From a virus: a DNA stretch of 64,000 nucleotides. Shown in pieces: positions 5,036 through 47,005 of the stretch. The notes under the pieces were generated by a model. The model saw nothing but the letters and a program-made list of their open reading frames with translations. It did not search any database and was not told where the DNA came from. Position 1 is the first letter of the stretch. Each line of letters starts with the position of its first letter. A program made the position numbers and the translations under genes. The DNA lies in IMG/VR virus record IMGVR_UViG_3300035670_012166, positions 5,915-69,914 of that record; one strand, written 5' to 3'.

Positions 5036-6205
5036 ATGAATAATTTTTTCCTACCACTTATGAATGACAACATTGATAAGCAAGATATTAATGCTGTTGT
5101 AGATTTTTTATCTCAAGATTCTATACCAAAACTAACCAATGGACCAAAAGTAAAGGAATTTGAAAATGCTTGGGGTGATTGGCTAGGAACTAAATATAAT
5201 CTTTTTGTCAACTCTGGTGCTTCTGCTAATGAATTAACTATGTTGGCATTAGCTCAAATAGTAGGTGAGGGGGAGATAATTCTTCCCCCACTAACTTGGA
5301 TTTCTGATATATCTTCAGTATTGTTTTCTGGACATAAACTAGTTTTTGTAGATGTCAACTTTGAAAATTTATCATTTGATATTGATAAGCTTAAAGAAGC
5401 AATAACTCCTAATACTAAAGCTATTTTTCTAACTCACGTATTAGGAATCAATGGTCTTACAGATGAACTATTGAGCATTTGTAAAGAACAAAATATTTTA
5501 TTAATTGAAGATGTTTGCGAATCTCATGGAACTACTTTTCAAGGTATAAAAGTGGGAAATTTTGGTTTTGCAAGTAATTTCAGTTTTTATTTTGCTCATC
5601 ATATGTCAACTATCGAAGGTGGAATGATCTGTACTAATGATTGGAATTTCTATCAAGTTTGCAGAGCTTTAAGATCTCATGGAATGACTAGGGAAATGAC
5701 TGATGAATCAATGAGGCAGCAAATCATTGATGAAAATCCTGATCTTAATCCAGATTTTATTTTTCTAAGACCAGCTCATAATTTTAGAAGCACAGAAATC
5801 AATGCTGTAATTGGTCTATCTCAATTACCTAAACTTGATATTAAGAATCAAGAAAGAATAGATAATTTCAACTATTTTATGTCGAAATTAGATTCTGAAA
5901 AGTATCATACAAATATCAATATTGAAGGCAACTGTAATTATGCTTTCATTGTAATATTGAAAGAATCTAGTTTTGATAAAAGAAATGATTTAGAAAATAA
6001 ACTTAAAGAAAATAAGATTGAATTTAGAAGAGGATTGTCTGGTGGTGGAAATCAAATGAGACAACCTTTCTTCAAAACAATTTACACAGAATTTGAAAAT
6101 TTCTCAAACATAGAACATATTCACAATTTTTCTTGGTATATTGGAAATTATCCAGGGCTTGAAAGAGAAAAAATCGACAAGCTTATAGAGGTACTAAATG
6201 GCTAG
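5036..6205 (+). CDS. DegT/DnrJ/EryC1/StrS PLP-dependent aminotransferase/dehydratase
   Basis: NSGASAN, IEDVCESHG, SFYFAHHMSTIEGG (H instead of K, ColD/E1-type). Confidence 0.85.
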   Translation: MNNFFLPLMNDNIDKQDINAVVDFLSQDSIPKLTNGPKVKEFENAWGDWLGTKYNLFVNSGASANELTMLALAQIVGEGEIILPPLTWISDISSVLFSGHKLVFVDVNFENLSFDIDKLKEAITPNTKAIFLTHVLGINGLTDELLSICKEQNILLIEDVCESHGTTFQGIKVGNFGFASNFSFYFAHHMSTIEGGMICTNDWNFYQVCRALRSHGMTREMTDESMRQQIIDENPDLNPDFIFLRPAHNFRSTEINAVIGLSQLPKLDIKNQERIDNFNYFMSKLDSEKYHTNINIEGNCNYAFIVILKESSFDKRNDLENKLKENKIEFRRGLSGGGNQMRQPFFKTIYTEFENFSNIEHIHNFSWYIGNYPGLEREKIDKLIEVLNG

Positions 6206-7476: not shown

Positions 7477-8472
7477 ATGAAAATTTTATTTATCACTTCA
7501 AGATGGTTTTGCGGAGATAGAGTTGGAACACCCTGCCATACCAAAAATATTGTCAATTCCCTGGAAGCAACATTTAATAATGACCCTAATGTTGAATATG
7601 AAGTAAAATATATCTCACCATCAGAAATTTGGTCAAGAGAAGAATTATGTAAAGTTATGCTTGAAACTGAATGTGATTTGATTCTCTTAAGCCCAATCAA
7701 ACACGTTTTTGTTGATATGCCCACAGCTGAAAAACTTGGTAAAAAATTAAATATTATTGTTTGGGACACTCATAGCTTACATACAAAATTAAGATATGTA
7801 AATTTTAGATGTTTCTTAAAAAGAAAAAATGATATTGGTGTAATGAATTATGACATTCCATTGTGGGATTTATCTCAGCACTGCAATATTGTTTGTATAG
7901 ATACTGGTTATGGAGAAATGTTCCCAAATATTTATAGCACGTTTGAACCTATGGATACAAATGTGCTTTATCCAATACCAGAAGAAGAAAAAATTTATGA
8001 TGTATCTTTCATTGGATCAACTGAAGATTATGAAAGACAATTTTATAAATACAATTTAGACAAACTTGGACTTAAGATCAATTGGCTAGGAGGAAGAGGA
8101 CCTAATGATAAAAGACTTTCTCACGAAGAATGGGCAGAAGCTCATAGAAAATCTAAAATTGAACTTAATTTTAATGGCAATGCTTTCATAGGTAATAGAA
8201 AATCTAGAGTATGGGAAATTGCTGCTTGCGGAAATATGATGATTGCAACTCTTCCTGATGTTTATAAATTTCACACTGGAGAATGGTTCAAGGATGGAGA
8301 ACATTTTGCATCAATCAACGAAAACAATTTTGCATATGTAATTCAATATTACTTAGATCATAATGAAAAAAGAATTCAGATGGCAAAGAAAATGCACGAA
8401 TTATTTATGGAAAAATATACACCAAGAATATGGTGGGAAAATTTGATGAGATATTCAAACTTAAAGGATTAA
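7477..8472 (+). CDS. Glycosyltransferase, CgeB/Glyco_trans_1_2-like; start refined to ATG 7477
   Basis: YDVSFIGS, SKIELNF, KSRVWEIAACG; paralog of 9..371. Confidence 0.7.
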   Translation: MKILFITSRWFCGDRVGTPCHTKNIVNSLEATFNNDPNVEYEVKYISPSEIWSREELCKVMLETECDLILLSPIKHVFVDMPTAEKLGKKLNIIVWDTHSLHTKLRYVNFRCFLKRKNDIGVMNYDIPLWDLSQHCNIVCIDTGYGEMFPNIYSTFEPMDTNVLYPIPEEEKIYDVSFIGSTEDYERQFYKYNLDKLGLKINWLGGRGPNDKRLSHEEWAEAHRKSKIELNFNGNAFIGNRKSRVWEIAACGNMMIATLPDVYKFHTGEWFKDGEHFASINENNFAYVIQYYLDHNEKRIQMAKKMHELFMEKYTPRIWWENLMRYSNLKD

Positions 8473-11594: not shown

Positions 11595-12770
11595 TTATTT
11601 CCACCAAACAATTTCTTCTTTGCAGGTTCTATTTCCAATCAAGTCTAAATATCTTGATTTTGGAATATTGTGCTTTTCATAATTGCTTTTTCCTACAATT
11701 CCATTCTTATAATTATCACGAACAATTTTGGCAATTTTATAACTTTCTAAATCTTTTTCAGATTTTTGTTTTCCTAAATTAAGTCTTTTATCTGTAGAGA
11801 AAATTTGTTCAATAGATAATCCTTGTCTGTATCTTCTATCTAAAGTAGATTTCGGAATATCAACTTCTTTGCTCCAATCTGAAAGCGACAATGTTTTATC
11901 ATTGTATGTTAGATAAATTGTTTCTTGATTGGATTTTTGATATACATAATTTTCGTCAAACCAAGTACGATTTGATAAGACATCATAAATTGTTGAAAGG
12001 GGTGTATCTAGTTTTAAAGATATATCCTTAGCTGATAAAGTTTGATGCAAAGTTCTAATAGTATTGGCAACTTCCTGATCTATTTTTTGATTATTGTGAG
12101 GCTTTGGATCTTCACCAACATAATCAGCTAATTCTAAATATTTTTGATATTTTCTTGAAAGTCTTGTTTCTTCTGTCGAATCTTTGTAAAGCCAATCTAA
12201 AAATTTTTTTGCAACATACTTGCCACTAAAATAAAGGTTAGTGTATGTACCATTGTTTTTAATACTGCCTTCACAATTATTATTGTTTTCATTATAGAAT
12301 TTTTTTAATCCTGATAAAAAACTTTCAGTCCCTACGATTGATGCTGAATATTGTCCTTTTGAAGGGTTGAAATGAACACATCCATCACCATCAAAATATC
12401 CTCTAATAAAATTATTCATAAGTTCATTTGAAATATCTTTACACCAATTTAAATTATAAGTTTTATTATTAGTATTAAAATATTTATTTATATCTTTTTT
12501 AATTTGATTTGAACATATTCTGATAGCTGACTGATCTTGCCCATTTTTTTTGGGAGTAAAATAAATTTTTCCATTATAAGAAATATCTTTTTTAAATCTA
12601 TTTAAAATTTCTTCATCTGATTTGATAATGTTAATTATCAAATAATTCATTTTATTTTCAAAATTGGTTATATGACCATCCGCTGCAATAAAACCCAAAT
12701 AATAAGCTGATTTATCATTCAAGTTGGAAAAATAAAAATCATTCAAAGAGTAAGTTCGTTTATCAACCAT
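11595..12770 (-). mobile_element. Free-standing double-motif LAGLIDADG homing endonuclease with C-terminal HTH-like modules (start likely ATG 12770)
   Basis: YYLGFIAADG and FIRGYFDGDG motifs; TATAAT and GGAG upstream of ATG 12770. Confidence 0.8.
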
Positions 12771-12802
12771 TTTGGTTCTCCATATTAGATTATACATCAT
12801 AA

Positions 12803-12840
12803 ACAAAATAATAAGGGAAGATAATTCTTCCCTTATTATT
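12803..12840 (-). terminator. Terminator after the major capsid gene
   Basis: 15-bp inverted repeat AATAATAAGGGAAGA/TCTTCCCTTATTATT. Confidence 0.7.
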
Positions 12841-14428: not shown

Positions 14429-16120
14429 TTAATCCTCGATTTTTGGCATTGTCCAAGTGCCTTTAAGAGCACTTTGGATGTCAAGAGCTGCACTGTTGTT
14501 GGAAAATCCACCAGACATTGCAGGAGATGTAGATACGCCTAATGTTGAAGCGGTTCTAGTACTCATTCTTTCAGCAGCTGCAGCAGCAACTCTTTCAGTT
14601 GATGATTGTGCAGACTTGAGTAAAAGTTTGGTTTGTCTGATCATAGAATCAGCTTTCAAACCATCGTTGAGCATTTGCTCAGCGTATGAATCAACTTCGT
14701 CAGAAGTGATAATTCCAGCTAAAGCTAATTTTGTTGCACAGCTATAAGAACACTTGATTCTTGCTGTATCAACAGAAGCTTTAAGTTCAGTAACAGTTGT
14801 AGCTTTGCCAGGAAGTTGAAATTCAGCGCCTGAAGGACCTTTACCAGTCAATTTAAGACCTTCTTCGTGAACAGGCTCTTGAATTTGCTCAGATTTTCTT
14901 TCCATATCTTCTGATTCTTCCTCATCAGACTTATCAGAAGCAGTTCTATTTGTTGGGCACTCTTTGTTTGCACAGCGAGTGTTGTCATCTTCCATCTCAG
15001 CTTCAGTCATAGACATTCTTGTACCACAAGCAGTGCATTCAACATCATGTTTGGAAGCACTAACAGATTTTGTTGATTTATGTGGCATAGCTGGCATTTG
15101 AGTTGGAACTTCAGGATGTTTAACATCTTCAAATCCTTCAGAAGGATTCTCTAATTTATCCCAATCAACTGTATACTCTAAAGAACCATCACCGGAACCT
15201 TCAAATTTCATAGGCTTTGTGACTGAAGGAAATTCCAAATGATCACCATTAACAGTTGGAACTTTTTGTTCAGCCCAAGTTGGATTTTGTTCCTTGAGTG
15301 AATTACCTTCACTACTTTGCATAGTCATAGAAGGATAATCTACTTCACCTTCCATATTGACTAAATCTTCGTTATATTTAAAAGAGGCTGACGCAGGATA
15401 AGTCTCTTCTTCAGATGCAATCTTCTTGAGAATTTCTTCTCTTTCTGCTCTTCTCATAAGGGCTTCTCTCTGTGCTTTGCGCTCAGCCAATGATTGTTTA
15501 TTCATTGATCTAACCTCGTTGCTTGTTTTCATAAGTTGTGTTTCATCATCTTCATCATCATCAGACATTGAATCTTCATCATCATCATTAAAATGAGTAA
15601 TTTCATCTTCATCATCTTCTGAATCAACATCTCCGCCAAGAAGATTATCTAGCGCCTCTTGCACAGCTTTTTGTGCTTGGTCAACCATATCAGCGGGAAC
15701 TTCAATCTCAAAAGTGGCGACATCATCACTATCTTCTACTTCGTCTTCGTCTTCCATATCGTCTGACATATCATCAGACATTTCTTCATTTTCATCATCT
15801 GAATCCTCATCACTCTCAAAGTGATGGAACTCTAAATCTTCATCATCATCGTCAGATTCATCTTTTGCGAAGTCAACAGTCTCTTTGCCATGATCAAGGT
15901 CCAAATTGGAGAAATCAAGACCAGCTTGTTTTGCAATATTTGGTAGATATTTTGCTCTAATTGCTTTTGCTACAACAATTGCTTCATTATTGTTTAATGA
16001 TGCAGTTTTCGTCATATCTGAAGCACAATTCAAAAGATCTTCCTTATCAGTTGCATTGATTTCAGCTAATCTCATTGCTGCAAATCTTCCCTGATTGGCT
16101 CTATTCGAATTTTTGTTCAT
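14429..16120 (-). CDS. Putative scaffolding protein (acidic, Zn-ribbon)
   Basis: Very Asp/Glu-rich; CTACG...CANKEC; directly upstream of decoration and capsid genes. Confidence 0.55.
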   Translation of the reverse strand: MNKNSNRANQGRFAAMRLAEINATDKEDLLNCASDMTKTASLNNNEAIVVAKAIRAKYLPNIAKQAGLDFSNLDLDHGKETVDFAKDESDDDDEDLEFHHFESDEDSDDENEEMSDDMSDDMEDEDEVEDSDDVATFEIEVPADMVDQAQKAVQEALDNLLGGDVDSEDDEDEITHFNDDDEDSMSDDDEDDETQLMKTSNEVRSMNKQSLAERKAQREALMRRAEREEILKKIASEEETYPASASFKYNEDLVNMEGEVDYPSMTMQSSEGNSLKEQNPTWAEQKVPTVNGDHLEFPSVTKPMKFEGSGDGSLEYTVDWDKLENPSEGFEDVKHPEVPTQMPAMPHKSTKSVSASKHDVECTACGTRMSMTEAEMEDDNTRCANKECPTNRTASDKSDEEESEDMERKSEQIQEPVHEEGLKLTGKGPSGAEFQLPGKATTVTELKASVDTARIKCSYSCATKLALAGIITSDEVDSYAEQMLNDGLKADSMIRQTKLLLKSAQSSTERVAAAAAERMSTRTASTLGVSTSPAMSGGFSNNSAALDIQSALKGTWTMPKIED

Positions 16121-16276: not shown

Positions 16277-19200
16277 TTAGTCAATCCAAGTGATTGTAAC
16301 ATCAAGCTTTGATGGATCATTCTTAGAAGCTTGTACAGATGTTCTAGAATAATTTCCACACTTGTAGCAGAATGTATTATTTTTTACTTTATGTGCTTCT
16401 CTATCACCGCAAGATGGGCAAACCATTCCAATTGGTAACATAGATTCTGCTTTTCTGTCAAATGCAGGTAAAGCAGTTTTCAAGTAAACATCTGAATCAA
16501 CAGTAGCAGAAAGTCTTACCATTGTTTTGATATCAGAAGCAACAGGTCCCATACCAGGAGCAGCTGGAGCAGGTGCAGGTGTTTCAGTAGGTGCAGTAGC
16601 TGCTCCTAAACCAGTATCTGGTCCAAGTCCCATTGGTTCTTCACCCATATCAGACTTGCCCTTATCTCCCATAGAAATAAGTTCAATTGATTGCATAATT
16701 TTGTATGTAGTGCCACAGCTTTGACAATCTGCATTAGACTCTGAAATATTTACATCATCAGAACCACAAACAGGACATACTGATCCCCAAGGTTTCTTTT
16801 CACCTGGTTCTGTCATTGCATCCATATCAGCAGATTCATTCATATCTGCTCCGCCAGTTAATGAAGAAATTCCTAAATCTCCACCAGCAGGAGCAGTAGC
16901 ACCTAAGCCTGGATCAACAGGACCAGCAGCAGGACCAGCAGGAGCTGGAGCACCCATTCCTGGCATTGCTTGAGCATATTTAGCTAAGACACTGTCTCTT
17001 CTTTCTTTTCTTGCGATTCTTGCAGTTTCTGTCATAATTACAGGAACATCTTCACCGCCTTCAATTACTTCTCCAACTTCACCAGATTCTGCTGAGTCTG
17101 TTTTGAATGTTTTAGAAGATGCAGTTGAAACAGTAGCTGTAACATCGCCATTTTCAGATACAAATAAATCAGTAAAAGAGAATGTTCCAGGATCTACTTG
17201 GAAACCGTGTCCTTGCAATACTTCAATAGCCTTTTGCTTGAATGTTTCATCAAAATTGCTATCTGATGGTTGAACACCATCTAAATCTTCAGCTCTGCAG
17301 ATAAATCTAATGCATTCTGATTTGCTTTGAGTAATTGTCATACCAGCAGTTCTTTCAGAAGCAACTACTGCTTTGGCAACTAATTTTTCTGCAACTTCAA
17401 ATTCTTCACAAAGTCTCTTAGCAGCCTTTGCAATTTTTCTTGTGCTAATGCCAAAATTTGTTGAATAATCTGCTAACCAACCAACAACATTATCAGAAAT
17501 GTTCTTTGTTGATGCAGTTTTAACACCCCAGAATTCTCTTCTTGCTCTTGCTCTTAATCTGCCATCAGTAGCAGTTGCAGTCTTTGCTTTATCAATAGCA
17601 GCCATCAATTGCTTTTCTGGCATAGCATCTACGGAATCTACTACTTCATCAGGAGTTGTTCCAGTTTCTTTCGAGGACATTGCCATAGCGGAAATTGCAG
17701 ATTTAAGATCATCTTTAGAGATAAGATCAGCATCAGCATCTACTGCAGACATAAGAGCTGATTTAAGTTCTTCATTTTTTGAAGGAGTGACATCAACATC
17801 TAATCCTTCTTCAGGAACAGCAGCATCTTTCATAAGTAATTCAGCAATTCTTGTGATGCCTTCTTTTGTAATTTCGCCTTCTTCAACTGCTACTGAAAGA
17901 GCATCAGAAAGATCTTTAGCTGTAATATCTGCAGAAACAGCAGCGCCTAATTGCTTAAGAATAGCTGCAACAGAATTATCAGGTTCCATTTCTTGATTGA
18001 AGAAATCTGCTCTTTCTGATTTATCAGATTCCATAGCAGAACCAGCAGCTGCTGTACCAATCATTTCTGGAAGCATTGGTTCATCAGACAATGTTTGTGC
18101 CACTCTAAGAATAGTTTTAGGAGTTTCATAAGAAGAAACTACAGCTCTTCCTAAAGCATTAATTGTAGCAGCCATAATTTCATGAGCACTTGCTGATCCT
18201 TCTGCTCTATGATTTGATAATTGCTCTTCAAGAATTCCAGTAGGTACACCGTGAGTAACTTCTTCAACAAGTTGAGTTAATGTTTCTCTTACAGCATCAT
18301 CCTTGACTCTTCTGCCATAAAGACCAGCATCACCAAGAAGAATCTCTTTGACTGCATCTTGACCTTCGCCAGTTTGCTTAGATTTGAGTTGTTCTTCTTT
18401 AGTGTTCTCATTAACTCCAGTGTTCTTACTCTTAACGCCATCAACTAAGTTGTCGTAAGATTCACCTTTTCTAACTTCATCAAGTTGCTTTTCTCTGTCA
18501 TCAAGTCTTTCTTTAACATCAAGCAATGCAGTTCTGACAAATTTAGAATAATCATTGAGTAATTCTGCAGCAACTCTTGTACCTTGTCCATTTTCCATCA
18601 AGTTTAATTGATTTTCATTAAGGATAGGTTCCCAAGCAGTTCTTTTGCCATTTGTGTAGCCTGTAATTGAACCATCAGTAGAAAGAACAACTCTATTGCC
18701 AGCATTGTCTTCGACTTTGAAATCGATTGTAACTGCAGCAGCAAGTTTTTTTCTTTGCTCTGATGCAATCTTTGCAAAGTGATCCATTTGATTTCTGCTC
18801 CCCGCCACGAAAGGCGTATTTGTTTTTATGTTTTTACTTCTTTCATTAGCAATTCTAATGACATTATCAATACTTTTTTGTACTTGCTTTTGATCATTTA
18901 AATTTTCTTTTAAATTTAAAATGCTCTTAGTTAAGTTTAAAAGTTTATTAGAAGATGAATTAGTTTGGGTACTTGCAAAAACTTCTCTTTTGCCATCTTT
19001 TGATGCCCATACTAAATTATTATAGCTAGAGGCTAAAGCTACGCCTCCTCCTATTTGTGGACCTTGGTTTTGATTTAATGATAAATCCATAATTTTTCCA
19101 ACAGAATCAGTTGGAGAATAATTAGCCAGTCCCACATTAGCTGCCATAGGAGAAGCTTGTTGTGCTTGACCTGGCTGACCTTGTTGTGCTTGAGGTTGAT

Positions 19201-20428
19201 TAATTTGTTGAGGTCTTTGTCCTGATCCAACATCTATGCCATCATCAATCATATCTTGCATAGTTGATTGTAATTCAGCCATAGATTTTGTAACTTTTCC
19301 AACGTGACCTAAATCAACATTGTCTTTTCTTGCAAACATATTCATCACAGCAACTTCTAAGAAATTAAGTGATAAATTAATCAAATCAAGAATATTTAAT
19401 CCAGAAGCAGGATCAATTCCAAGGGCTGATAACACTGCTTGAACAGTAGAATTTTGATTAGCTCCTTGTCCTGCTAATAAAGGACCTCCAACAAGTGTTC
19501 CAGCTTGTTGTGCTAATCTTATTGCTGTTTTAGCTGTGGAATTTGCAACCCTTAAGCAATTTTCATATTCTAATCTATCTTGTGTGTTATTAGGTAGATC
19601 TTGTAATGCTAAAACAATATTAGAAGAAATTTCATTAGCTTTCTTTTCTAAATTGGTGGCTGCATCTAGAACATCATCTACATCATAAATTTCTTGAATT
19701 TCGCAAGATTCAAAAGCACCATCACCTACACAGCTAAGTTCAATAAACTTAACTCCGTAGTTTTTTTCATAAGCTCTTTTGCCTGTTTCTGGATAAATTT
19801 TTCCTTTGTATTTCTTAAGGTGTTCACAATAATCTCTTTCTGTATATGCTTTATTACCGCAAACAGAACAAACACCCCATTCAACACTAGCTCCCATAGA
19901 AACATCATGAATTACACCAGTGCGAATATTTCTTGCAATATCTGGGTAAGCTTCTTCATCTACAAAGAAAGTACAGTAAACACAATTTTCTTTTTCATCC
20001 CACTCTGCATAAACAACCATACCTTTAGCTTGTTCAATATCATCGTTTTTATGGTTTGTGTAGATTGGAACGCCTTCGAAAGTTTTATATACTGGGATTT
20101 TTTCTCCCTTGATTTCTGTTTCTTTAAGTAATTCTTCTTTTGAAAACAAGTCACCATTAGCATTTACGACATCTGCATCTATAGCTCTGGCTCTTACCCA
20201 TAAAAGTTTAGCACCTTTACGAGCTTGCATTTCTTTAACAATGTCAAAATCTTTATATTTTTCCAGAACTTCTTTAGGATCAGCATAGAGAGATTGAAGA
20301 CCAATTTTAGCAGCTTCTCTCATATTAGTGGAAGCAGTTTTGATAATATATTCTCTTGCTATATTTCGGTCATTTTCGTTGAGAAAACTATTTATTGTAA
20401 TAGCTCCTCCTTTGGCAACCTTGTACAT
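16277..20428 (-). CDS. Prohead (capsid maturation) protease with long scaffold-like extension and Zn-ribbons
   Basis: N-terminal NANGD.F...NHK...G.V...DVSMGA...CSVCG...CEH...FIELSCV; C-terminal CxxC pairs. Confidence 0.7.
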   Translation of the reverse strand: MYKVAKGGAITINSFLNENDRNIAREYIIKTASTNMREAAKIGLQSLYADPKEVLEKYKDFDIVKEMQARKGAKLLWVRARAIDADVVNANGDLFSKEELLKETEIKGEKIPVYKTFEGVPIYTNHKNDDIEQAKGMVVYAEWDEKENCVYCTFFVDEEAYPDIARNIRTGVIHDVSMGASVEWGVCSVCGNKAYTERDYCEHLKKYKGKIYPETGKRAYEKNYGVKFIELSCVGDGAFESCEIQEIYDVDDVLDAATNLEKKANEISSNIVLALQDLPNNTQDRLEYENCLRVANSTAKTAIRLAQQAGTLVGGPLLAGQGANQNSTVQAVLSALGIDPASGLNILDLINLSLNFLEVAVMNMFARKDNVDLGHVGKVTKSMAELQSTMQDMIDDGIDVGSGQRPQQINQPQAQQGQPGQAQQASPMAANVGLANYSPTDSVGKIMDLSLNQNQGPQIGGGVALASSYNNLVWASKDGKREVFASTQTNSSSNKLLNLTKSILNLKENLNDQKQVQKSIDNVIRIANERSKNIKTNTPFVAGSRNQMDHFAKIASEQRKKLAAAVTIDFKVEDNAGNRVVLSTDGSITGYTNGKRTAWEPILNENQLNLMENGQGTRVAAELLNDYSKFVRTALLDVKERLDDREKQLDEVRKGESYDNLVDGVKSKNTGVNENTKEEQLKSKQTGEGQDAVKEILLGDAGLYGRRVKDDAVRETLTQLVEEVTHGVPTGILEEQLSNHRAEGSASAHEIMAATINALGRAVVSSYETPKTILRVAQTLSDEPMLPEMIGTAAAGSAMESDKSERADFFNQEMEPDNSVAAILKQLGAAVSADITAKDLSDALSVAVEEGEITKEGITRIAELLMKDAAVPEEGLDVDVTPSKNEELKSALMSAVDADADLISKDDLKSAISAMAMSSKETGTTPDEVVDSVDAMPEKQLMAAIDKAKTATATDGRLRARARREFWGVKTASTKNISDNVVGWLADYSTNFGISTRKIAKAAKRLCEEFEVAEKLVAKAVVASERTAGMTITQSKSECIRFICRAEDLDGVQPSDSNFDETFKQKAIEVLQGHGFQVDPGTFSFTDLFVSENGDVTATVSTASSKTFKTDSAESGEVGEVIEGGEDVPVIMTETARIARKERRDSVLAKYAQAMPGMGAPAPAGPAAGPVDPGLGATAPAGGDLGISSLTGGADMNESADMDAMTEPGEKKPWGSVCPVCGSDDVNISESNADCQSCGTTYKIMQSIELISMGDKGKSDMGEEPMGLGPDTGLGAATAPTETPAPAPAAPGMGPVASDIKTMVRLSATVDSDVYLKTALPAFDRKAESMLPIGMVCPSCGDREAHKVKNNTFCYKCGNYSRTSVQASKNDPSKLDVTITWID

Positions 20429-20554: not shown

Positions 20555-22915
20555 TTAAAGATATTCAGATTCACCTTCTCCCATACCTGTTCTTTTTTTG
20601 ATAACATTAATTAAAACATTTAAACAATCTTGTGGATGGTCATTGATTTCTTTGTCTGTGAATCTAACAATAATCCATCCATTTGCAGCTAACTCAGAAT
20701 CTCTTCTTTTATCTTTTGCAATTTTGTCTGGATTGTTATGCCAAATTTCACCATCAGCTTCAATTCCAATCTTAAGATTTGGAATTGCTCCATCTAATTG
20801 ATAGTCCATACTAGGTCCAGCAGAATATTGAGCATAAAGTGGGTATGGCATATTCAATGACATCAATAATCCATATAGCTTTTTCTCAAGATTTGTAAAC
20901 ATTTTTGGTTGCTGTGCATTGTCTAATTTTTTTGCAGCAAATTTCTTAAAGTTCTCATTTTCAGATAAAACATATATTTCATTAAGCGCAAAATTATTCA
21001 ATGGATGAGAACTATTACCTCCAAGTAATGGTGTTTGTATAGGACCAAATAAACCATCATATTCATCTGCTAAAGGTCCAAGGGAACCTCTTCCAGTGAC
21101 AGGAGTTTGAGACATCAAAAAGCCTTCGTGAGCAGCTGACTTAATTTTTCTACTTGCTGTTTTTACATTAGAATTCTTTTTATCAATTCTTTCAGTCCAA
21201 ACATTGTTAATAATTGAACTGGCTAACTTGTAATTTTTAAGCATAGTTGATGCTGTAGGCATTGGGGCTGGCGCAGCTGGAGCAGGAGCAGCACCACCAG
21301 GAGCAGGAGTGCTTGCACCACCAACACCTAAATCTGGAGTAGGAGGAGCACTTTCAGCGGAAACCTCTCCAGTTCCACCAGTAAATCCTTGACCTGTAAC
21401 ACCACCACTTTGAAAACTTAATGAGATATTAGGTGTTCCAAAATTTTGATCATTTACAAAATTTGCACCTTGTTCAAATCTCAATCTTTCAATTTCTTGA
21501 TCAGAATCTAATCCGAAAGCTTCAATTAAAGAAACATTAGAGATAACACCATTTTGATTTGCTGTAACAAGCATTTGTAGTTTTCCAGTATCATCTCTTA
21601 ATTGTAAATCATCAAATTTGATTTTTGGATAAACTAATTCATCTTGTCCACGTTCGCCTTCAATAACAAAACCATTCCATTTTGCTACTGGCATAAAAAC
21701 ACATTGTTCAATCCAATGTGCCACTTCTCTTCTGAATGTCTCTAATCTTTGAGCCATAGCAAGAAGACCAACTTGAGCATTACCGTAAGTTGGACCCTCA
21801 CCATTAAGAAGAGCTTTATTAAGCATAACTCCATCTAAAATCTCTTGTTCAATTAATTCAAATTCACCAGTAAGAGGATGAATCTTACCTGTTGCTCCAT
21901 ACCATTCAAGATCAAAGTTGTGGTGTGTAACAAGAGTAAGGTTTGGATCATTAGCAATTGATGCTAATTCATCTTGAACATTGTCAATATCTTCTTGAGA
22001 TGCTGGACGAGTATCACTTCCAATCTTAACTACCTTGATTGGTAAAATAAGACGTTCAGCAATCATATATTGAGCTTGGCGTAGTTTATCTTTATATGTA
22101 AGAATTGGAAACAATGGTCTGATCATAGAAATTCCATAATCTTCCCAAGGGTTTGATCCATATTTAAAATGATGTATAGAAATAGGGTTTAATTTGATAG
22201 GATTACCCTGCATAATCATCTTTTTGATATCGTCAGGAATCTTGTCGTAGATTTCTTTAGGATGTCTTTCGTTGACAATTCTAATTTCTTCTGCAGATGG
22301 TCTGTATGCATAACTACCTGGTTGATCAATCATTCCTGGAGTTTTGATTACAGAATCAGGGTTTAAGATAGAAATCGATTTCCAAGTTGCACCATCATGC
22401 TCACATTCTTGATTTTTATCATCATCCCAGTTTGAACCGTGGCAATGTGGACAATCAAGTGAAAGTAAAACGAATGAATCTCCAAGTAAATGGTAAGTTT
22501 TGGAAATTTCTGGAAGCCACTTTTGAAAGTTTAAAGATTCAACTAGTTTTTCAAAATAATCTTTAACATAAGCTGAAGAACATTCTAATTTCCAACCAGA
22601 GAAAGGATAGTTGGTATAGAAATTTATGGCTGCAGCAATTTTAGGTTCATTATTTCTCCACCAGTTAGCCCAAAGATAAATCTCACGACGAGCATTTGGA
22701 ATTTGAAAAGATGATGGAGTGAGGAATGGCGAATAAAAATTTGGAGCTGTAGTAACGGTATTGATGCTAGCAGTTCTTGTTACGCTAGGTCCTAAACCTA
22801 AACCAATTCTACTACTTGCATAATTTTTATCTACAGGTGAATTAGGGGTGCTTGCTCCTGATACTTGTGTAGCTGCTGTTCTAATTGCAGAAGCCAAAGA
22901 TGTTCTATTTGCCAT
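20555..22915 (-). CDS. Portal protein with C-terminal DUF559/Vsr-like endonuclease domain
   Basis: Portal-like core (HHFKY..NPW..YG.S.IRP; PIKVVKIG; VPKIKFDDL-like); C-terminal LDGA...IEADGEIWH...DKRRD..L...GW.IVRF. Confidence 0.7.
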   Translation of the reverse strand: MANRTSLASAIRTAATQVSGASTPNSPVDKNYASSRIGLGLGPSVTRTASINTVTTAPNFYSPFLTPSSFQIPNARREIYLWANWWRNNEPKIAAAINFYTNYPFSGWKLECSSAYVKDYFEKLVESLNFQKWLPEISKTYHLLGDSFVLLSLDCPHCHGSNWDDDKNQECEHDGATWKSISILNPDSVIKTPGMIDQPGSYAYRPSAEEIRIVNERHPKEIYDKIPDDIKKMIMQGNPIKLNPISIHHFKYGSNPWEDYGISMIRPLFPILTYKDKLRQAQYMIAERLILPIKVVKIGSDTRPASQEDIDNVQDELASIANDPNLTLVTHHNFDLEWYGATGKIHPLTGEFELIEQEILDGVMLNKALLNGEGPTYGNAQVGLLAMAQRLETFRREVAHWIEQCVFMPVAKWNGFVIEGERGQDELVYPKIKFDDLQLRDDTGKLQMLVTANQNGVISNVSLIEAFGLDSDQEIERLRFEQGANFVNDQNFGTPNISLSFQSGGVTGQGFTGGTGEVSAESAPPTPDLGVGGASTPAPGGAAPAPAAPAPMPTASTMLKNYKLASSIINNVWTERIDKKNSNVKTASRKIKSAAHEGFLMSQTPVTGRGSLGPLADEYDGLFGPIQTPLLGGNSSHPLNNFALNEIYVLSENENFKKFAAKKLDNAQQPKMFTNLEKKLYGLLMSLNMPYPLYAQYSAGPSMDYQLDGAIPNLKIGIEADGEIWHNNPDKIAKDKRRDSELAANGWIIVRFTDKEINDHPQDCLNVLINVIKKRTGMGEGESEYL

Positions 22916-22948: not shown

Positions 22949-23476
22949 TTAAAACCAAGTTTGATTTGAGGGTTTATTTCCAAAAAGGATAGGATCTTGT
23001 TTTTTACTAGAAGCTTGATAATAACCTTCACCACTTTTAAAATGTTGAAAGCCTTGACCTTTTTCTCTTGATGCCATACTTTGAGGCTCTCTGTTATTGT
23101 TTTCTTGTTGAGATCCTCTAAGTTGTTCTTCCAAAGTAGTATTTTCTGGATTCTCATGATAAGGAGAATGTCTACGTGCTTCAATAGATGCAGATTGAGG
23201 AGAAACAATAAATTGACCATTATTGTCCATATTCATTCTGTGAGGACGATCTACTAGTAAATTCCAAATTTCTTTTTGTTGCTCTTGATTCATTTCATAA
23301 TATTCATCAAGAGTTTTACCCATTTTATCTAGAATGCCAGTTAGTTCATCATATAAACCTGCAGGTTTATTATCAACATCCTGTATGTCATCAATTTCAG
23401 AATAATTGTCTTCAGAATCTTCTGGTGACCAATTAATTCCACCACCTAATTGAGCAAGAATTTGTTTATACCACAT
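22949..23476 (-). CDS. Hypothetical head-cluster protein with MWY leader
   Basis: 175-aa ORF starting MWYKQILAQ. Confidence 0.6.
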   Translation of the reverse strand: MWYKQILAQLGGGINWSPEDSEDNYSEIDDIQDVDNKPAGLYDELTGILDKMGKTLDEYYEMNQEQQKEIWNLLVDRPHRMNMDNNGQFIVSPQSASIEARRHSPYHENPENTTLEEQLRGSQQENNNREPQSMASREKGQGFQHFKSGEGYYQASSKKQDPILFGNKPSNQTWF

Positions 23477-30390: not shown

Positions 30391-32502
30391 TTACCTTCTA
30401 TTCAAATTAACCATTTTTGCTCTAGGTAATCTCACAGCAATTTTAGATGTTAAACATTCATATGAAACAGCAGCAACAGCATCACAAATATCATCTTTGT
30501 AGCCAGACAAAGCTTCGATATAATATCTTTTGCCTTTCCATTTTTTTTGCAAGAATAAAAACTGAATTTTAGCTTCTTGTATTTCATTTAATGGTTGCAA
30601 GGTATTGTTCAAGTCATAGTAAGATCCACCTGAAAGATCATAAATATCTATCCTGTCATCTCTTATCAATTGAGCAAGTTCTGTGTAAATTTTTTCTTTA
30701 TATTCTTTGTTGAATTGTCTTTCAACAATTGGAATCCTCATAGATTGCAATTTAATTAAAGAGGATTGTGAATTCCATTGATCAATACTTACTTGTTTGA
30801 ATTTAAATCTCTGATGAAGATCAATTACATAATCTTCGATATCTTTTTCTTGAACTGGTTGATTTTTAGTTTTTGGATTCCAAAAATGAATGTGATCAAT
30901 TACCACTCTTTTCAATGGTTTAAAGTCAGGGCCAATTTCACCATACATATTTTCTGTATGAGCTATAACAAGAGCGTAATAATCAGAAGTTCTTGCTGGA
31001 TCTAAATGGCAGAAATATTCAAAATGACCATCAGCAAATTCTTTTCTTTTTACCATAGACATTGATGTAAACATTCTCTCAATGTCTTCTGCAGAGAAGA
31101 TAGGATCTGAAGAAGAAGCACCAAATTCAGCTCCATATTGCATTTGAAATTCTTGAGGGTCTTTTTTCTTTTGTCCATCAAGCCAATCTTTATCAATATT
31201 AGGATTTGTAAGCCAAGTGGGAAGTCTCATAACAAGAGTGGTAGGATCTTCTTGTCTGTTTTCATGCAAATCATAAAGTAATCCAATAGGTCCTTTAGGG
31301 TTGGAAAGCATCATCATCTTTCCATCTTTACCAAATGTTGCAAGAGATGGTTTTAATTCATCATATAAGGCATAATCCACACCACTATCTGGATTATCAC
31401 CAGCCATAGCAGCTACCTCGTCCATAATTATTGACCAACAAGTTAAACCAACAAGGCCAGACGCATTACTAGAACCACACCTTAATACTAAAGATCCAGC
31501 AAATAAATTAATACCTTGATCAGATCTTCTTACATTTTCTTCTCTATCGTGTTCTGTGTAAAACCTCATTTCAAGTTCTGTATCTTTGCCAATATAAGGA
31601 GCAAAAAATGGAGAGGCTAAAACTGTTTGCTTGATTTTAGAGAAGATTGCCTTTTTAGCCTGTTCTTCATTACGAGCAACATTCAATAGAACAATCTCAT
31701 CGAATTCCATCAAGCCATATCTTGCTTGAGGATGACCCATAGAAATTAATCTGTAAAGTTCATATAGAGCCATAGCAGAAACAAGAAATGATTTTCCAGA
31801 ACGTCTACCTAGTACTAAAACAAGTTCTTCAAACTTAAATCTTTGCTTTGATTTTTGTTCTACTTGCATTCTGAGTTTAGGATCAAACTCTTCAGAATAA
31901 AGTAAATCATTTTCTGATTGATATCCATCAATTATAGGTCTAGCTTCTAAATTTTCTACTTGTCTTTCAGCATCAGGGTTAGTAGCTTCTTGTCTTGCAT
32001 ATTCATATCTAGCTTTTCTTACATCATTGTTAAGTCTAGAACATTGCAAACAAGGAGAATTAACTACATTGAAAATTGTTTTGAAATTTCTCTCTTCTTT
32101 TCTAGCTTTCAAAAAATCATTTTCATTTTTTTGAATATAGTTCCAAACACAACCTTGGCAATCAACTTCATTTTCTGTATTGTCAATTACAAGATTGGTA
32201 TTTCCTTCTTGTCCCATATAAAAACATTTTAAGATAAGTTTTTGCCAAGGATAAGGCTTAAGATTACAGAAAAAAGGGTGTTCAATAAAAGTGATAATAT
32301 CTACAATTTGATCAGGATTAAATCTATCTTTTGGTGGTTTTACAGGTGGAGCAACTTCTTGTCTAGTGGCAGGAGCAATTTCTTCATCAAAATCTCTGGC
32401 GTAAATTGTATCCTTGAAAAGCTCTTTTACTGAGTTTGCTTGTTGTAGTAATTGACTTTTTAACTCATTTGAACTTTTATTGACTTGAACTGGTTTTCTC
32501 AT
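30391..32502 (-). CDS. Terminase large subunit
   Basis: PYPWQ, Walker A GRRSGKS, Walker B IIMDE, LSNP, RNase H-like HLDPA...DDICDA. Confidence 0.9.
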   Translation of the reverse strand: MRKPVQVNKSSNELKSQLLQQANSVKELFKDTIYARDFDEEIAPATRQEVAPPVKPPKDRFNPDQIVDIITFIEHPFFCNLKPYPWQKLILKCFYMGQEGNTNLVIDNTENEVDCQGCVWNYIQKNENDFLKARKEERNFKTIFNVVNSPCLQCSRLNNDVRKARYEYARQEATNPDAERQVENLEARPIIDGYQSENDLLYSEEFDPKLRMQVEQKSKQRFKFEELVLVLGRRSGKSFLVSAMALYELYRLISMGHPQARYGLMEFDEIVLLNVARNEEQAKKAIFSKIKQTVLASPFFAPYIGKDTELEMRFYTEHDREENVRRSDQGINLFAGSLVLRCGSSNASGLVGLTCWSIIMDEVAAMAGDNPDSGVDYALYDELKPSLATFGKDGKMMMLSNPKGPIGLLYDLHENRQEDPTTLVMRLPTWLTNPNIDKDWLDGQKKKDPQEFQMQYGAEFGASSSDPIFSAEDIERMFTSMSMVKRKEFADGHFEYFCHLDPARTSDYYALVIAHTENMYGEIGPDFKPLKRVVIDHIHFWNPKTKNQPVQEKDIEDYVIDLHQRFKFKQVSIDQWNSQSSLIKLQSMRIPIVERQFNKEYKEKIYTELAQLIRDDRIDIYDLSGGSYYDLNNTLQPLNEIQEAKIQFLFLQKKWKGKRYYIEALSGYKDDICDAVAAVSYECLTSKIAVRLPRAKMVNLNRR

Positions 32503-44982: not shown

Positions 44983-46548
44983 ATGTGGTACAAAACTGCT
45001 CTTACTACAATCGACCCAACAGGACAAATTAATTTTCCTGATATGGGTGGGCATAAATTCAACCTAAATGATTTAAAATTTAAAGTTAATGTTAAAGATT
45101 ATATTAACACAAAAAGAGTTATAATTTTTGCTTTTATTCCTGCGATCAAAAATTCAATAGGAACACTCGAGTTTATATACGATAAAGACAAAAATTACAT
45201 TGATATTGATGGTGTATTAGTTAAAAAAATAGGAAAAATACCCCTAGAAAAATTACAACAACAACACGATGATCAAGTGCAATTAAAAACAACTGGAATT
45301 GGAATTGGAAAAAAACTTTATGAAAAGTTTTTAGAAGTTGTTCAAAACGATGAAGAATTGTCTAAAGCAGATTTTGTAAGAGGGGACGTTCATTCACAGC
45401 AAGCTTATAAAGCAAAGAATAATGCATTGGGCAAACCATTTGAAGCTAGAAGTAAATTTAATACATCTGAAAATAATCAAGCAATTAGAAATAAAATTAT
45501 TGATTTAGAAAATGAACTTTACGATCCTGATATAACTTATATTAGAAAAAATCAAATATTACAATTAATCAACACACTTACATTTGAATTAGAAAAATCT
45601 GTACCCGTTACACACGAACAGTCTATGGATATTTTAGTTCCTGCTAGTTGGTCTAAAGATGGCACTTATGTAGATAATCTTTATAATTATCCAAGTGTTG
45701 AAACAAAACATAGAATTCCTGCTAAAAGTGAAGATAGACCGAAGAGAAGACTACAAGATCCAAATCAATTAAGTTTAGATGTAGCTGCTAGTCAAAAACA
45801 TTACAAGATTGCTATAACTCAAGTTGATCCTTCTGGGCAAATTAATATGGATTTTCCAGGAATTAGACCTAAACCATTCAATATAGACAAAGATGTAGAT
45901 TTTAAAATAAAATATGATCAATTTTGGAAATCTTATACCATCACTGCTTACTTGAAAAATGGTAGAGATCTAGGACATATCTCAATGGAAGTTCCTGAAG
46001 GTATGAACACAGCAAAGATTGAGTTTGTTACCTTAAATGAATATCCAAATAGTGCAGGAACAGAGGAATGGGAAAAGCCCAAAAATCCTGAAGATAGATT
46101 AAGACCTGACTTAATGAAAGAATTAAAACAGGCTGGATATGAAGTTGATGAAAATTCCTATACTAGATTGAAATGGGGCATAGGCAAAAGACTCTACGAA
46201 GAAGCTAAAAAGTTCTTACAAAAAAATAAACCAGATGTTGAATTTGTTGAAGGAACTGTTCATAGCAGAGATGCATATAATAGCAGAAATTCAGTATTTG
46301 GATTGCCTAATTCTGCATACGATCCAGATGGAAGTACTTGGTATAGAATTCATCAAGATCATTCTCCTGAAGAACGTGAAGAATTATCAAAAAAAATCTC
46401 ATATGAATTATTTCCATCTAGATTCCAAAACTCTGGCGAATCTGAAATTCCACCTAGTATGTTTTATGTAAAGCATAAAATAAATAAATTACCAACCAAA
46501 AAGGTCAACCAAGATCAATCTGAAGGATTATTCGACGATGTGGTATAG
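44983..46548 (+). CDS. MWY-leader protein with two tandem GNAT-like modules
   Basis: Internal duplication: DP(T/S)GQIN..., GIG(IG)K.LYE, (D/E)FV.G.VHS..AY..(K/R)N...G. Confidence 0.55.
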   Translation: MWYKTALTTIDPTGQINFPDMGGHKFNLNDLKFKVNVKDYINTKRVIIFAFIPAIKNSIGTLEFIYDKDKNYIDIDGVLVKKIGKIPLEKLQQQHDDQVQLKTTGIGIGKKLYEKFLEVVQNDEELSKADFVRGDVHSQQAYKAKNNALGKPFEARSKFNTSENNQAIRNKIIDLENELYDPDITYIRKNQILQLINTLTFELEKSVPVTHEQSMDILVPASWSKDGTYVDNLYNYPSVETKHRIPAKSEDRPKRRLQDPNQLSLDVAASQKHYKIAITQVDPSGQINMDFPGIRPKPFNIDKDVDFKIKYDQFWKSYTITAYLKNGRDLGHISMEVPEGMNTAKIEFVTLNEYPNSAGTEEWEKPKNPEDRLRPDLMKELKQAGYEVDENSYTRLKWGIGKRLYEEAKKFLQKNKPDVEFVEGTVHSRDAYNSRNSVFGLPNSAYDPDGSTWYRIHQDHSPEEREELSKKISYELFPSRFQNSGESEIPPSMFYVKHKINKLPTKKVNQDQSEGLFDDVV

Positions 46549-47005
46549 ATTTGCACAAATATTTGGTATACATCCAAAAGAAAAAGAAGCATTGGAATTT
46601 TATGGTGAAACAGATGATCCTGTTAAGGCTGGTTATGTACTAAGCACTGGAAAATTTCTAGATTATTCTGAAGGTGGGTACGAGAGATCATTAGATCATA
46701 GAAACATTGAATATATTATGGATGAGCCAGAAGAATCTAAAGGAAGTAGATATTCTGATTATGTTGTTCCTTTTATGTCTTTAACTGGCGCAATTAGAGT
46801 TTCAAATTATGGTGAATGGAGTGTCGATATACATTCTCCTCCTACTCCTGAACAAATTACAGCTATAGCAAGAAATCATATAAATGGAAAAGATTTTCAT
46901 TATGATGTAGATCCTCTTGGAATTAGTGAAACATTACCAAGAGCTTCTCAGGAAGCAGTAGCTAATAAATTGAGAGAAATTAGAAGACAATTAATGGGCC
47001 AATAA
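46538..47005 (+). CDS. Hypothetical MWY-leader protein
   Basis: MWYRFAQ; AGY...G..LD.S...R..DHR.I...GAIR. Confidence 0.6.
   Translation: MWYRFAQIFGIHPKEKEALEFYGETDDPVKAGYVLSTGKFLDYSEGGYERSLDHRNIEYIMDEPEESKGSRYSDYVVPFMSLTGAIRVSNYGEWSVDIHSPPTPEQITAIARNHINGKDFHYDVDPLGISETLPRASQEAVANKLREIRRQLMGQ

Follow-up and report, generated by a model that had tools for sequence, protein, structure and literature searches.

Portal proteins are among the most conserved and best studied machines of phages. In the solved portals the clip faces outward, and stem, wing and crown lie within the head; in T4 these three parts are inside the capsid (PMC9958956). T4 tolerates GFP at the C-terminus of up to half of its portal subunits, and this GFP is carried into working proheads (PMC9958956). 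A precedent for portal-linked cargo is given by the MuF toxins, which bind the portal and more than half of which carry nuclease domains (PMC5576092). Here we describe a portal gene whose product ends in a nuclease domain of its own. It is encoded on the minus strand at 20555..22915 of a 64,000-nt stretch of virus DNA (referred to as the window; positions 5,915 to 69,914 of the IMG/VR record IMGVR_UViG_3300035670_012166), and coordinates below are those of the window unless another record or locus is named. The source record is a 120-kb virus fragment, rated as ~34% complete by CheckV, with an estimated genome size of ~350 kb. The phage is an uncultivated giant whose head module distantly resembles that of phage G, and the gene product is its portal. 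We found no description of a portal-nuclease fusion in the literature, the jumbo-phage survey of Iyer et al. being without mention of one, and among 50,697 GenBank phage records there is no portal that bears this module.

The portal gene encodes 786 amino acids (aa) in a single open reading frame (ORF), which is supported by Pfam and PHROG matches and by 348 homologues. A variable N-terminal region (residues 1-54, 22754..22915) containing the motifs RTAA (12-15) and RTAS (47-50) is followed by the portal core (residues 55-485, 21461..22753), a variable Gly/Pro/Ala-rich tether (residues 486-558, 21242..21460), a conserved middle module (residues 559-671, 20903..21241) and the nuclease domain (residues 672-777, 20585..20902), after which the ORF closes with a short variable tail. 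The region to which the initial annotation had assigned the fusion (20555-21300) thus takes in the last part of the linker together with middle module and nuclease domain, while the gene itself reaches 22915. The peptide strings quoted there could all be recovered by translation, namely PTAS (21248-21259), YKLASS, KTAS (21152-21163), KKFAAK, LDGA and IEADGEIWH.

The nuclease domain matches DUF559 (PF04480) with 27.8 bits (cut-off 20.6) and stays just under the cut-off of MTES_1575 (PF18741; 36 vs 38.2 bits), the matched region being residues 703-771. In comparisons of residues 672-777 by VIA-align, the best agreement was seen with the DUF559 protein NGO0050 (3hrl; Z 9.9, root-mean-square deviation 1.9 Å over 93 of 94 residues), the catalytic domain of I-Bth0305I (3r3p; Z 9.7) and DNA-bound Vsr (1cw0; Z 8.4). 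The top Foldseek matches are the same solved structures. Holliday-junction resolvases follow as weaker matches (Hjc Z 4.5, RecU-like Z 4.0). We mapped the active site through a phmmer alignment to 3r3p and the residue table of Taylor et al. 2011 (PMC3239194): E677 corresponds to Vsr E25, D708 to D51, H726 to H69 and D735 to D97, D721 takes the position of H64, and E719 is the extra acid of the EDxHD family (position of Vsr F62). These six residues are invariant in 110 of 110 close homologues. Among 67 cluster representatives (50% identity), one or two exceptions occur, truncated ends aside; in the latter set Q696 is invariant as well, and R738, D739, W747 and R751 are nearly so. The complete nuclease fold claimed in the initial annotation is thus borne out, with a Vsr-like fold and an intact catalytic set. 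The Vsr equivalog model TIGR00632 gives only 20.6 bits against a cut-off of 97.85, with no more than the last ~25 profile positions matching, and neither the zinc site nor the intercalating-Trp segment of Vsr was identified in the portal domain. The domain is Vsr-like in fold and chemistry, but it is not a Vsr orthologue. Judged from sequence and structural model, the DNA-cutting domain apparently works. The EDxHD homing endonuclease I-Bth0305I, NGO0050 and E. coli Vsr (1cw0/1vsr) share its fold and catalytic positions, but they are free enzymes or fused to NUMOD or helix-turn-helix (HTH) modules, whereas here the domain forms the C-terminus of a structural ring protein.

The fusion is real, and related portals have conserved it. 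The 348 relatives were found in a search of 5.8 billion proteins, and all full-length ones, down to 50% identity, combine Portal_Mu with DUF559 or MTES_1575. Relatives without the nuclease are few, and all of them stop mid-sequence at the ends of short contigs. In IMG/VR, core and nuclease lie in one uninterrupted frame at 66 of the 67 independent loci that hold both parts. The exception is L069 (IMGVR_UViG_3300012000_000088, 7681-7683), the only interrupted form among the loci seen, where one in-frame TGA (followed by G) is located inside the tether and the frame runs on into the module; this TGA could stem from a sequencing error, mark a true split or act as a leaky stop. A lost stop codon or a misassembly as the origin of the fusion is ruled out by the 66 intact loci, together with the finding that the domain-less homologues are all cut by contig ends. 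Since the fusion is conserved and the fold is Vsr-like, neither of the two outcomes named beforehand as speaking against the proposal (lost stop or misassembly, and a fold other than that of a nuclease) was found.

When the C-terminal 228 residues were compared with 1.84 billion cluster representatives, 192 matches at E <= 1e-10 were obtained. A recognisable portal core is present in 67 of the 150 best cluster representatives; 82 are short, and most of these start inside the Gly/Met/Pro linker and are therefore pieces of this fusion. P0127, P0133 and similar short proteins begin close to the module boundary. The pairwise identities of core and nuclease co-vary over a range of core identity from 97% to 40% (Pearson r = 0.93 for 595 pairs; the sequences are related, so that r carries no probability), which argues for joint vertical descent and not for repeated capture. 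With a mean identity of 0.75-0.83, the nuclease domain matches the core in conservation. No full-length portal with at least 40% core identity was found to be devoid of the nuclease domain, be it in the homologue search, among the IMG/VR loci or among the cluster representatives. In the most distant fusions, core, low-complexity linker (Gly/Met/Pro) and nuclease are constant, and the middle module is missing or very short. These comparisons indicate that the portal-nuclease fusion is ancient, was inherited together with the core and is under purifying selection, and we consider it very probable that we are dealing with a real, ancient fusion that carries an intact Vsr-like nuclease. The initial annotation had called a nuclease on a portal unusual. 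This applies to cultured phages, in view of the GenBank result above, but not within the uncultured clade, where the fusion is the rule.

The identity of the core is supported by several profiles. Portal_Mu (PF06074) matches residues 232-467 with 33.3 bits (cut-off 23.9), the portal protein family phrog_16240 matches residues 57-421 (E 3.4e-32), and the family profile weakly matches the dodecameric SPbeta YonE chain 9pha (E 0.0014). Among cultured phages, gp14 of Bacillus/Lysinibacillus phage G (Donellivirus gee) is the best match, with 28% identity over residues 1-486 (E 2e-69). The head-module context fits a portal, the large terminase (TerL) gene lying upstream at 30391..32502 and a protease-scaffold gene immediately downstream. 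The CxxC insert noted earlier (DCPHCHG) is real and belongs to a CCCH zinc-knuckle-like segment (C155, C158, C171, H173; 22397..22453), whose four residues do not vary among 41 homologues; compared with the phage G portal, it is a 17-residue insertion, seen as a gap in the alignment. Both gp14 (648 aa) and the portal studied here have the homologous core and, after the crown, a long Pro/Gly-rich low-complexity C-terminal tail, but gp14 is without the DUF559 domain, the middle module and the CCCH insert. Its tail comprises ~110 residues and is followed by a short peptide with KIAS. As the phage G portal has the tail and no nuclease, the tether may predate the nuclease fusion.

The core of our portal ends in a crown-like manner (...DQEIERLRFEQ), and the tether begins directly thereafter. 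This linker, pointed out as Pro-rich by the initial annotation, is indeed a variable, indel-rich tether and the least conserved part of the protein (identity 0.31-0.54, gaps up to 46%); its length ranges from 40 to 100 residues, and in the present protein it closes with PTAS. The middle module, which begins with NYKLAS, is predicted to consist of four helices and has the invariant residues Y562, A565, G608, R609 and A643. The AlphaFold 2 (AF2) model of residues 559-786 reached a predicted local distance difference test score (pLDDT) of 87 and a predicted template modelling (TM) score of 0.84. KTAS sits in the loop between helices 1 and 2, which is indel-prone, has the lowest pLDDT and is the only low-confidence loop of the module. 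Informative relatives of the module were not found, the ESM Atlas matches being noise and the VIA-align matches barely covering it, and within the same limits no NUMOD or HTH DNA-binding module was detected in this region. The module start NYKLAS (NY[KR]LAS) faintly resembles, in four positions only, the leader MWY[KR], which we take as a lead and not as a finding. Six proteins begin with MWY[KRN]: those encoded at 22949-23476 (-), 44983-46548 (+) and 46538-47005 (+), and three more in the record outside the window. The first of these genes is located directly upstream of the portal gene, and the gene in this place has the leader here, in L069 and in L079.

The crown is inside the capsid in known portals, so about twelve nuclease modules would hang inside each prohead, at the inner mouth of the DNA channel; by this analogy, about twelve nucleases should be present inside every capsid. 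The reading that we tentatively favour is that the portal loads a fixed nuclease dose into the head, where a protease frees it for exit with the DNA. According to this proposal, the portal C-terminus would carry the nuclease modules into the prohead on their flexible tethers, and the prohead protease encoded by the next gene would cut at conserved P-x-A-S or [KR]-x-A-S sites at the tether end and in the first module loop. The freed nuclease of ~23-26 kDa would then exit with the DNA at infection and might act on host or rival DNA, or on the ends of the incoming genome. More doubtful is the extended version, in which the portal is a stoichiometric vehicle for twelve latent nucleases. The maturation protease would unlock these, and they would be injected before or together with the genome to attack the DNA of host or competitor. 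If this is true, cargo would enter capsids by a new route that differs from both scaffold-targeting leaders and MuF adaptors. The MuF (SPP1 gp7-like) toxins likewise bear a nuclease or toxin domain at the C-terminus of a portal-held head protein and have been proposed to be delivered with the DNA (PMC5576092). They are, however, separate proteins present in one or two copies, usually with a downstream immunity gene, in systems of temperate phages, whereas here the carrier is the portal itself (hence ~12 copies), the phage is of a giant, probably virulent type, and an immunity gene is not evident. No MuF family match was found in the portal ORF, so the likeness is functional only. In the engineered T4 portal-GFP, too, a folded domain of ~27 kDa on the portal C-terminus enters functional proheads (PMC9958956); that fusion is artificial, tolerated on only about half of the subunits and without an enzymatic role, whereas ours occurs in nature, and in every complete relative examined it is part of the one portal gene.

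The presumed processing enzyme is the 1383-aa product of the adjacent downstream gene (16277..20428, minus strand), which combines a prohead protease domain (~52-243) with a scaffold-like region, Pro/Ala/Gly linkers and zinc ribbons (phrog_18299, head maturation protease; phrog_2774). We counted 14 sites of the motif [KR][TVI]A[SAQ] in three adjacent head genes, where about one is expected from composition; the motif had been chosen by the initial annotation after seeing the sequences, so that this enrichment test is not blind. Observed and expected numbers of sites are 5 vs 0.16 in 14429-16120 (-), 5 vs 0.63 in 16277-20428 (-) and 4 vs 0.21 in the portal gene, and the motif is absent from most non-structural genes. 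The 563-aa product of 14429-16120 has no family match. Candidate sites in the portal are R47-TAS, which ends a few residues ahead of the conserved core (22766-22777; R-x-A-Q in the homologue consensus), P553-x-A555, which closes the tether, and R585-x-A587-S588 in the module loop. The residues P553 and A555 as well as R585, A587 and S588 are conserved. The candidate cleavage sites of the initial annotation are thus supported in part, by the enrichment and by the conservation of two of them, whereas KKFAAK is poorly conserved. Cleavage between Ala and Ser would be akin to the preference of herpesvirus assemblin, a relative of phage prohead proteases.

Several points weigh against release of the nuclease as cargo, besides the way in which the motif was chosen. 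The most distant fusions have retained tether and nuclease, with the middle module and its motifs missing or very short, which agrees no less well with a tethered role than with release. A tether of 40-100 residues exceeds what a cleavage site would require. An immunity gene was not identified, the gene downstream of the portal being the protease-scaffold gene, and it is hard to see how the co-packaged genome would escape cutting. Finally, no palindrome is avoided in common by the two relatives compared: in the present record (G000) CATG occurs at 0.19 of expectation and CGCG and CACGTG are missing entirely, whereas in the relative G002 (L081-L099) CCGG is absent, with about 1039 occurrences expected, as are twelve 6-base palindromes; CCWGG is not avoided in this test. 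As the avoidance, extreme in both relatives, concerns different palindromes, no recognition site can be inferred.

The other DNA-processing enzymes of the clade bear on the alternatives. TerL (30391..32502, minus strand; 703 aa) has an ATPase and a nuclease domain, as seen from its match to phrog_2 (E 2.7e-30) and its AF2 model. It has no matches to the Pfam families Terminase_6N, 6C and Terminase_3 or to phage G gp1, and a sequence-profile search against the PDB returned nothing. The AF2 model matches the full-length terminases of D6E, HK97, T4 and Sf6, as well as the isolated terminase nuclease domains of G20c (TM score 0.76) and P74-26 (0.75); D501, D574, D670, D671 and D674 are invariant, and the homologues are annotated as PF27249. 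Residues 1-210 form an N-terminal extension ahead of Walker A, with the invariant cysteines C115, C118, C151 and C154 in a zinc ribbon-like arrangement. In five large relatives we found a RusA-like gene in four and Endo VII in the fifth; RuvC was not found in any of these five. Since TerL keeps its nuclease domain and the relatives encode RusA or Endo VII, the portal nuclease replaces neither. Its roles as a stand-in for a lost terminase nuclease and as the sole junction resolvase are both ruled out.

A tethered, non-released role in the head is a close second to the cargo model. In its specific form, a packaging or maturation nuclease would stay on the portal and trim or nick the DNA end, clear stalled or branched DNA, or help the terminase to cut; we rate this form as unlikely. 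Such an enzyme would be the covalent counterpart of T4 Endo VII on gp20, of the T4 head-completion nuclease gp4 or of an HNH helper of the HK97 type. T4 Endo VII reportedly binds gp20. The long flexible linker suggests reach and not release, tether and nuclease are all that the most distant fusions have kept besides the core, and Holliday-junction resolvases share the fold, as described above. In addition, gp4 provides a second virion-associated nuclease of the restriction endonuclease fold, needed for morphogenesis in T4-like and group 2 jumbo phages and likewise acting as an extra nuclease beside the terminase at the portal vertex during head filling or completion (PMC7824862). However, the portal C-terminus would be inside the head, away from the terminase and from branches stalled outside, TerL has a nuclease domain with invariant acidic residues, and RusA or Endo VII is encoded by all five large relatives. 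Endo VII and gp4 (TnsA-like) are separate proteins of other folds or families that work on the head from its outer side; for the fused domain, a position inside is predicted. Of the functions that the initial annotation had offered for the domain (cargo, packaging or end-processing, domesticated mobile nuclease), the two packaging versions are therefore weakened by the terminase nuclease and the resolvases, and ongoing homing is argued against by the observations that follow.

Homing raises the question whether the domain is a domesticated or still selfish endonuclease of the EDxHD type, taken up in frame by the portal gene at its 3' end and now serving competition between co-infecting phages (marker exclusion, cutting of rival portal alleles) without a virion function. 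A homing enzyme, I-Bth0305I, is among its closest solved relatives, the PADLOC model 'HEase' matches the domain, stand-alone relatives bear zinc-ribbon DNA-binding regions like homing enzymes (L100), the portal and TerL genes of the clade are intein hot spots, and a LAGLIDADG+HNH gene is part of the head cluster. On the other hand, the domain is universal in the clade and not located inside an intein (the inteins of homologues lie elsewhere); its divergence follows that of the core, where a homing element would be sporadic, and it evolves as slowly as the core. With no full-length portal at >= 40% core identity seen without it, there are no homing target alleles in sight, nor was a NUMOD or HTH module detected in the middle region, within the limits given above. 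We consider this origin and use as distinctly improbable, and an active homing element as unlikely. The least probable of the alternatives, to which we give little credit, is a non-catalytic plug, structural or DNA-binding, that holds the first-packaged end or organises the DNA spool near the crown. Many PD-(D/E)xK folds have been recruited as binding modules. Crown and wing of the T4 portal do touch packaged DNA (PMC9958956), but the six catalytic positions as well as Q696, R738 and D739 are invariant or nearly so in the 110 close and 67 distant sequences, which would be unexpected if the chemistry were dispensable.

A natural enzyme on the capsid-interior end of every portal subunit is new to the literature searched, yet a large clade of giant phages from the environment has it as a rule. 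This raises the question how a DNase stays harmless beside 350-480 kb of tightly packed DNA, and further if portals serve as cargo carriers or if giant phages need an additional nuclease at the vertex. In addition, the fusion is a natural template for filling capsids with a fixed number of protein copies.

Mobile elements were observed at several places in this clade. Portal genes often hold one to three inteins (LAGLIDADG_3, Hint, Intein_splicing), the products then having 1100-2013 aa (P0126, P0129, P0161, P0164 and others), and TerL homologues of 1070 aa carry LAGLIDADG inserts (P0289, P0328 etc.). In the window, a free-standing endonuclease of 403 aa with LAGLIDADG and HNH regions is encoded inside the head gene cluster (11595-12806, minus strand). 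Locus L100 (867-1664) encodes a stand-alone protein of 265 aa with several CxxC pairs and DUF559, which sits between two near-duplicate ParB-like/methyltransferase ORFs and resembles a free-standing homing-type insertion.

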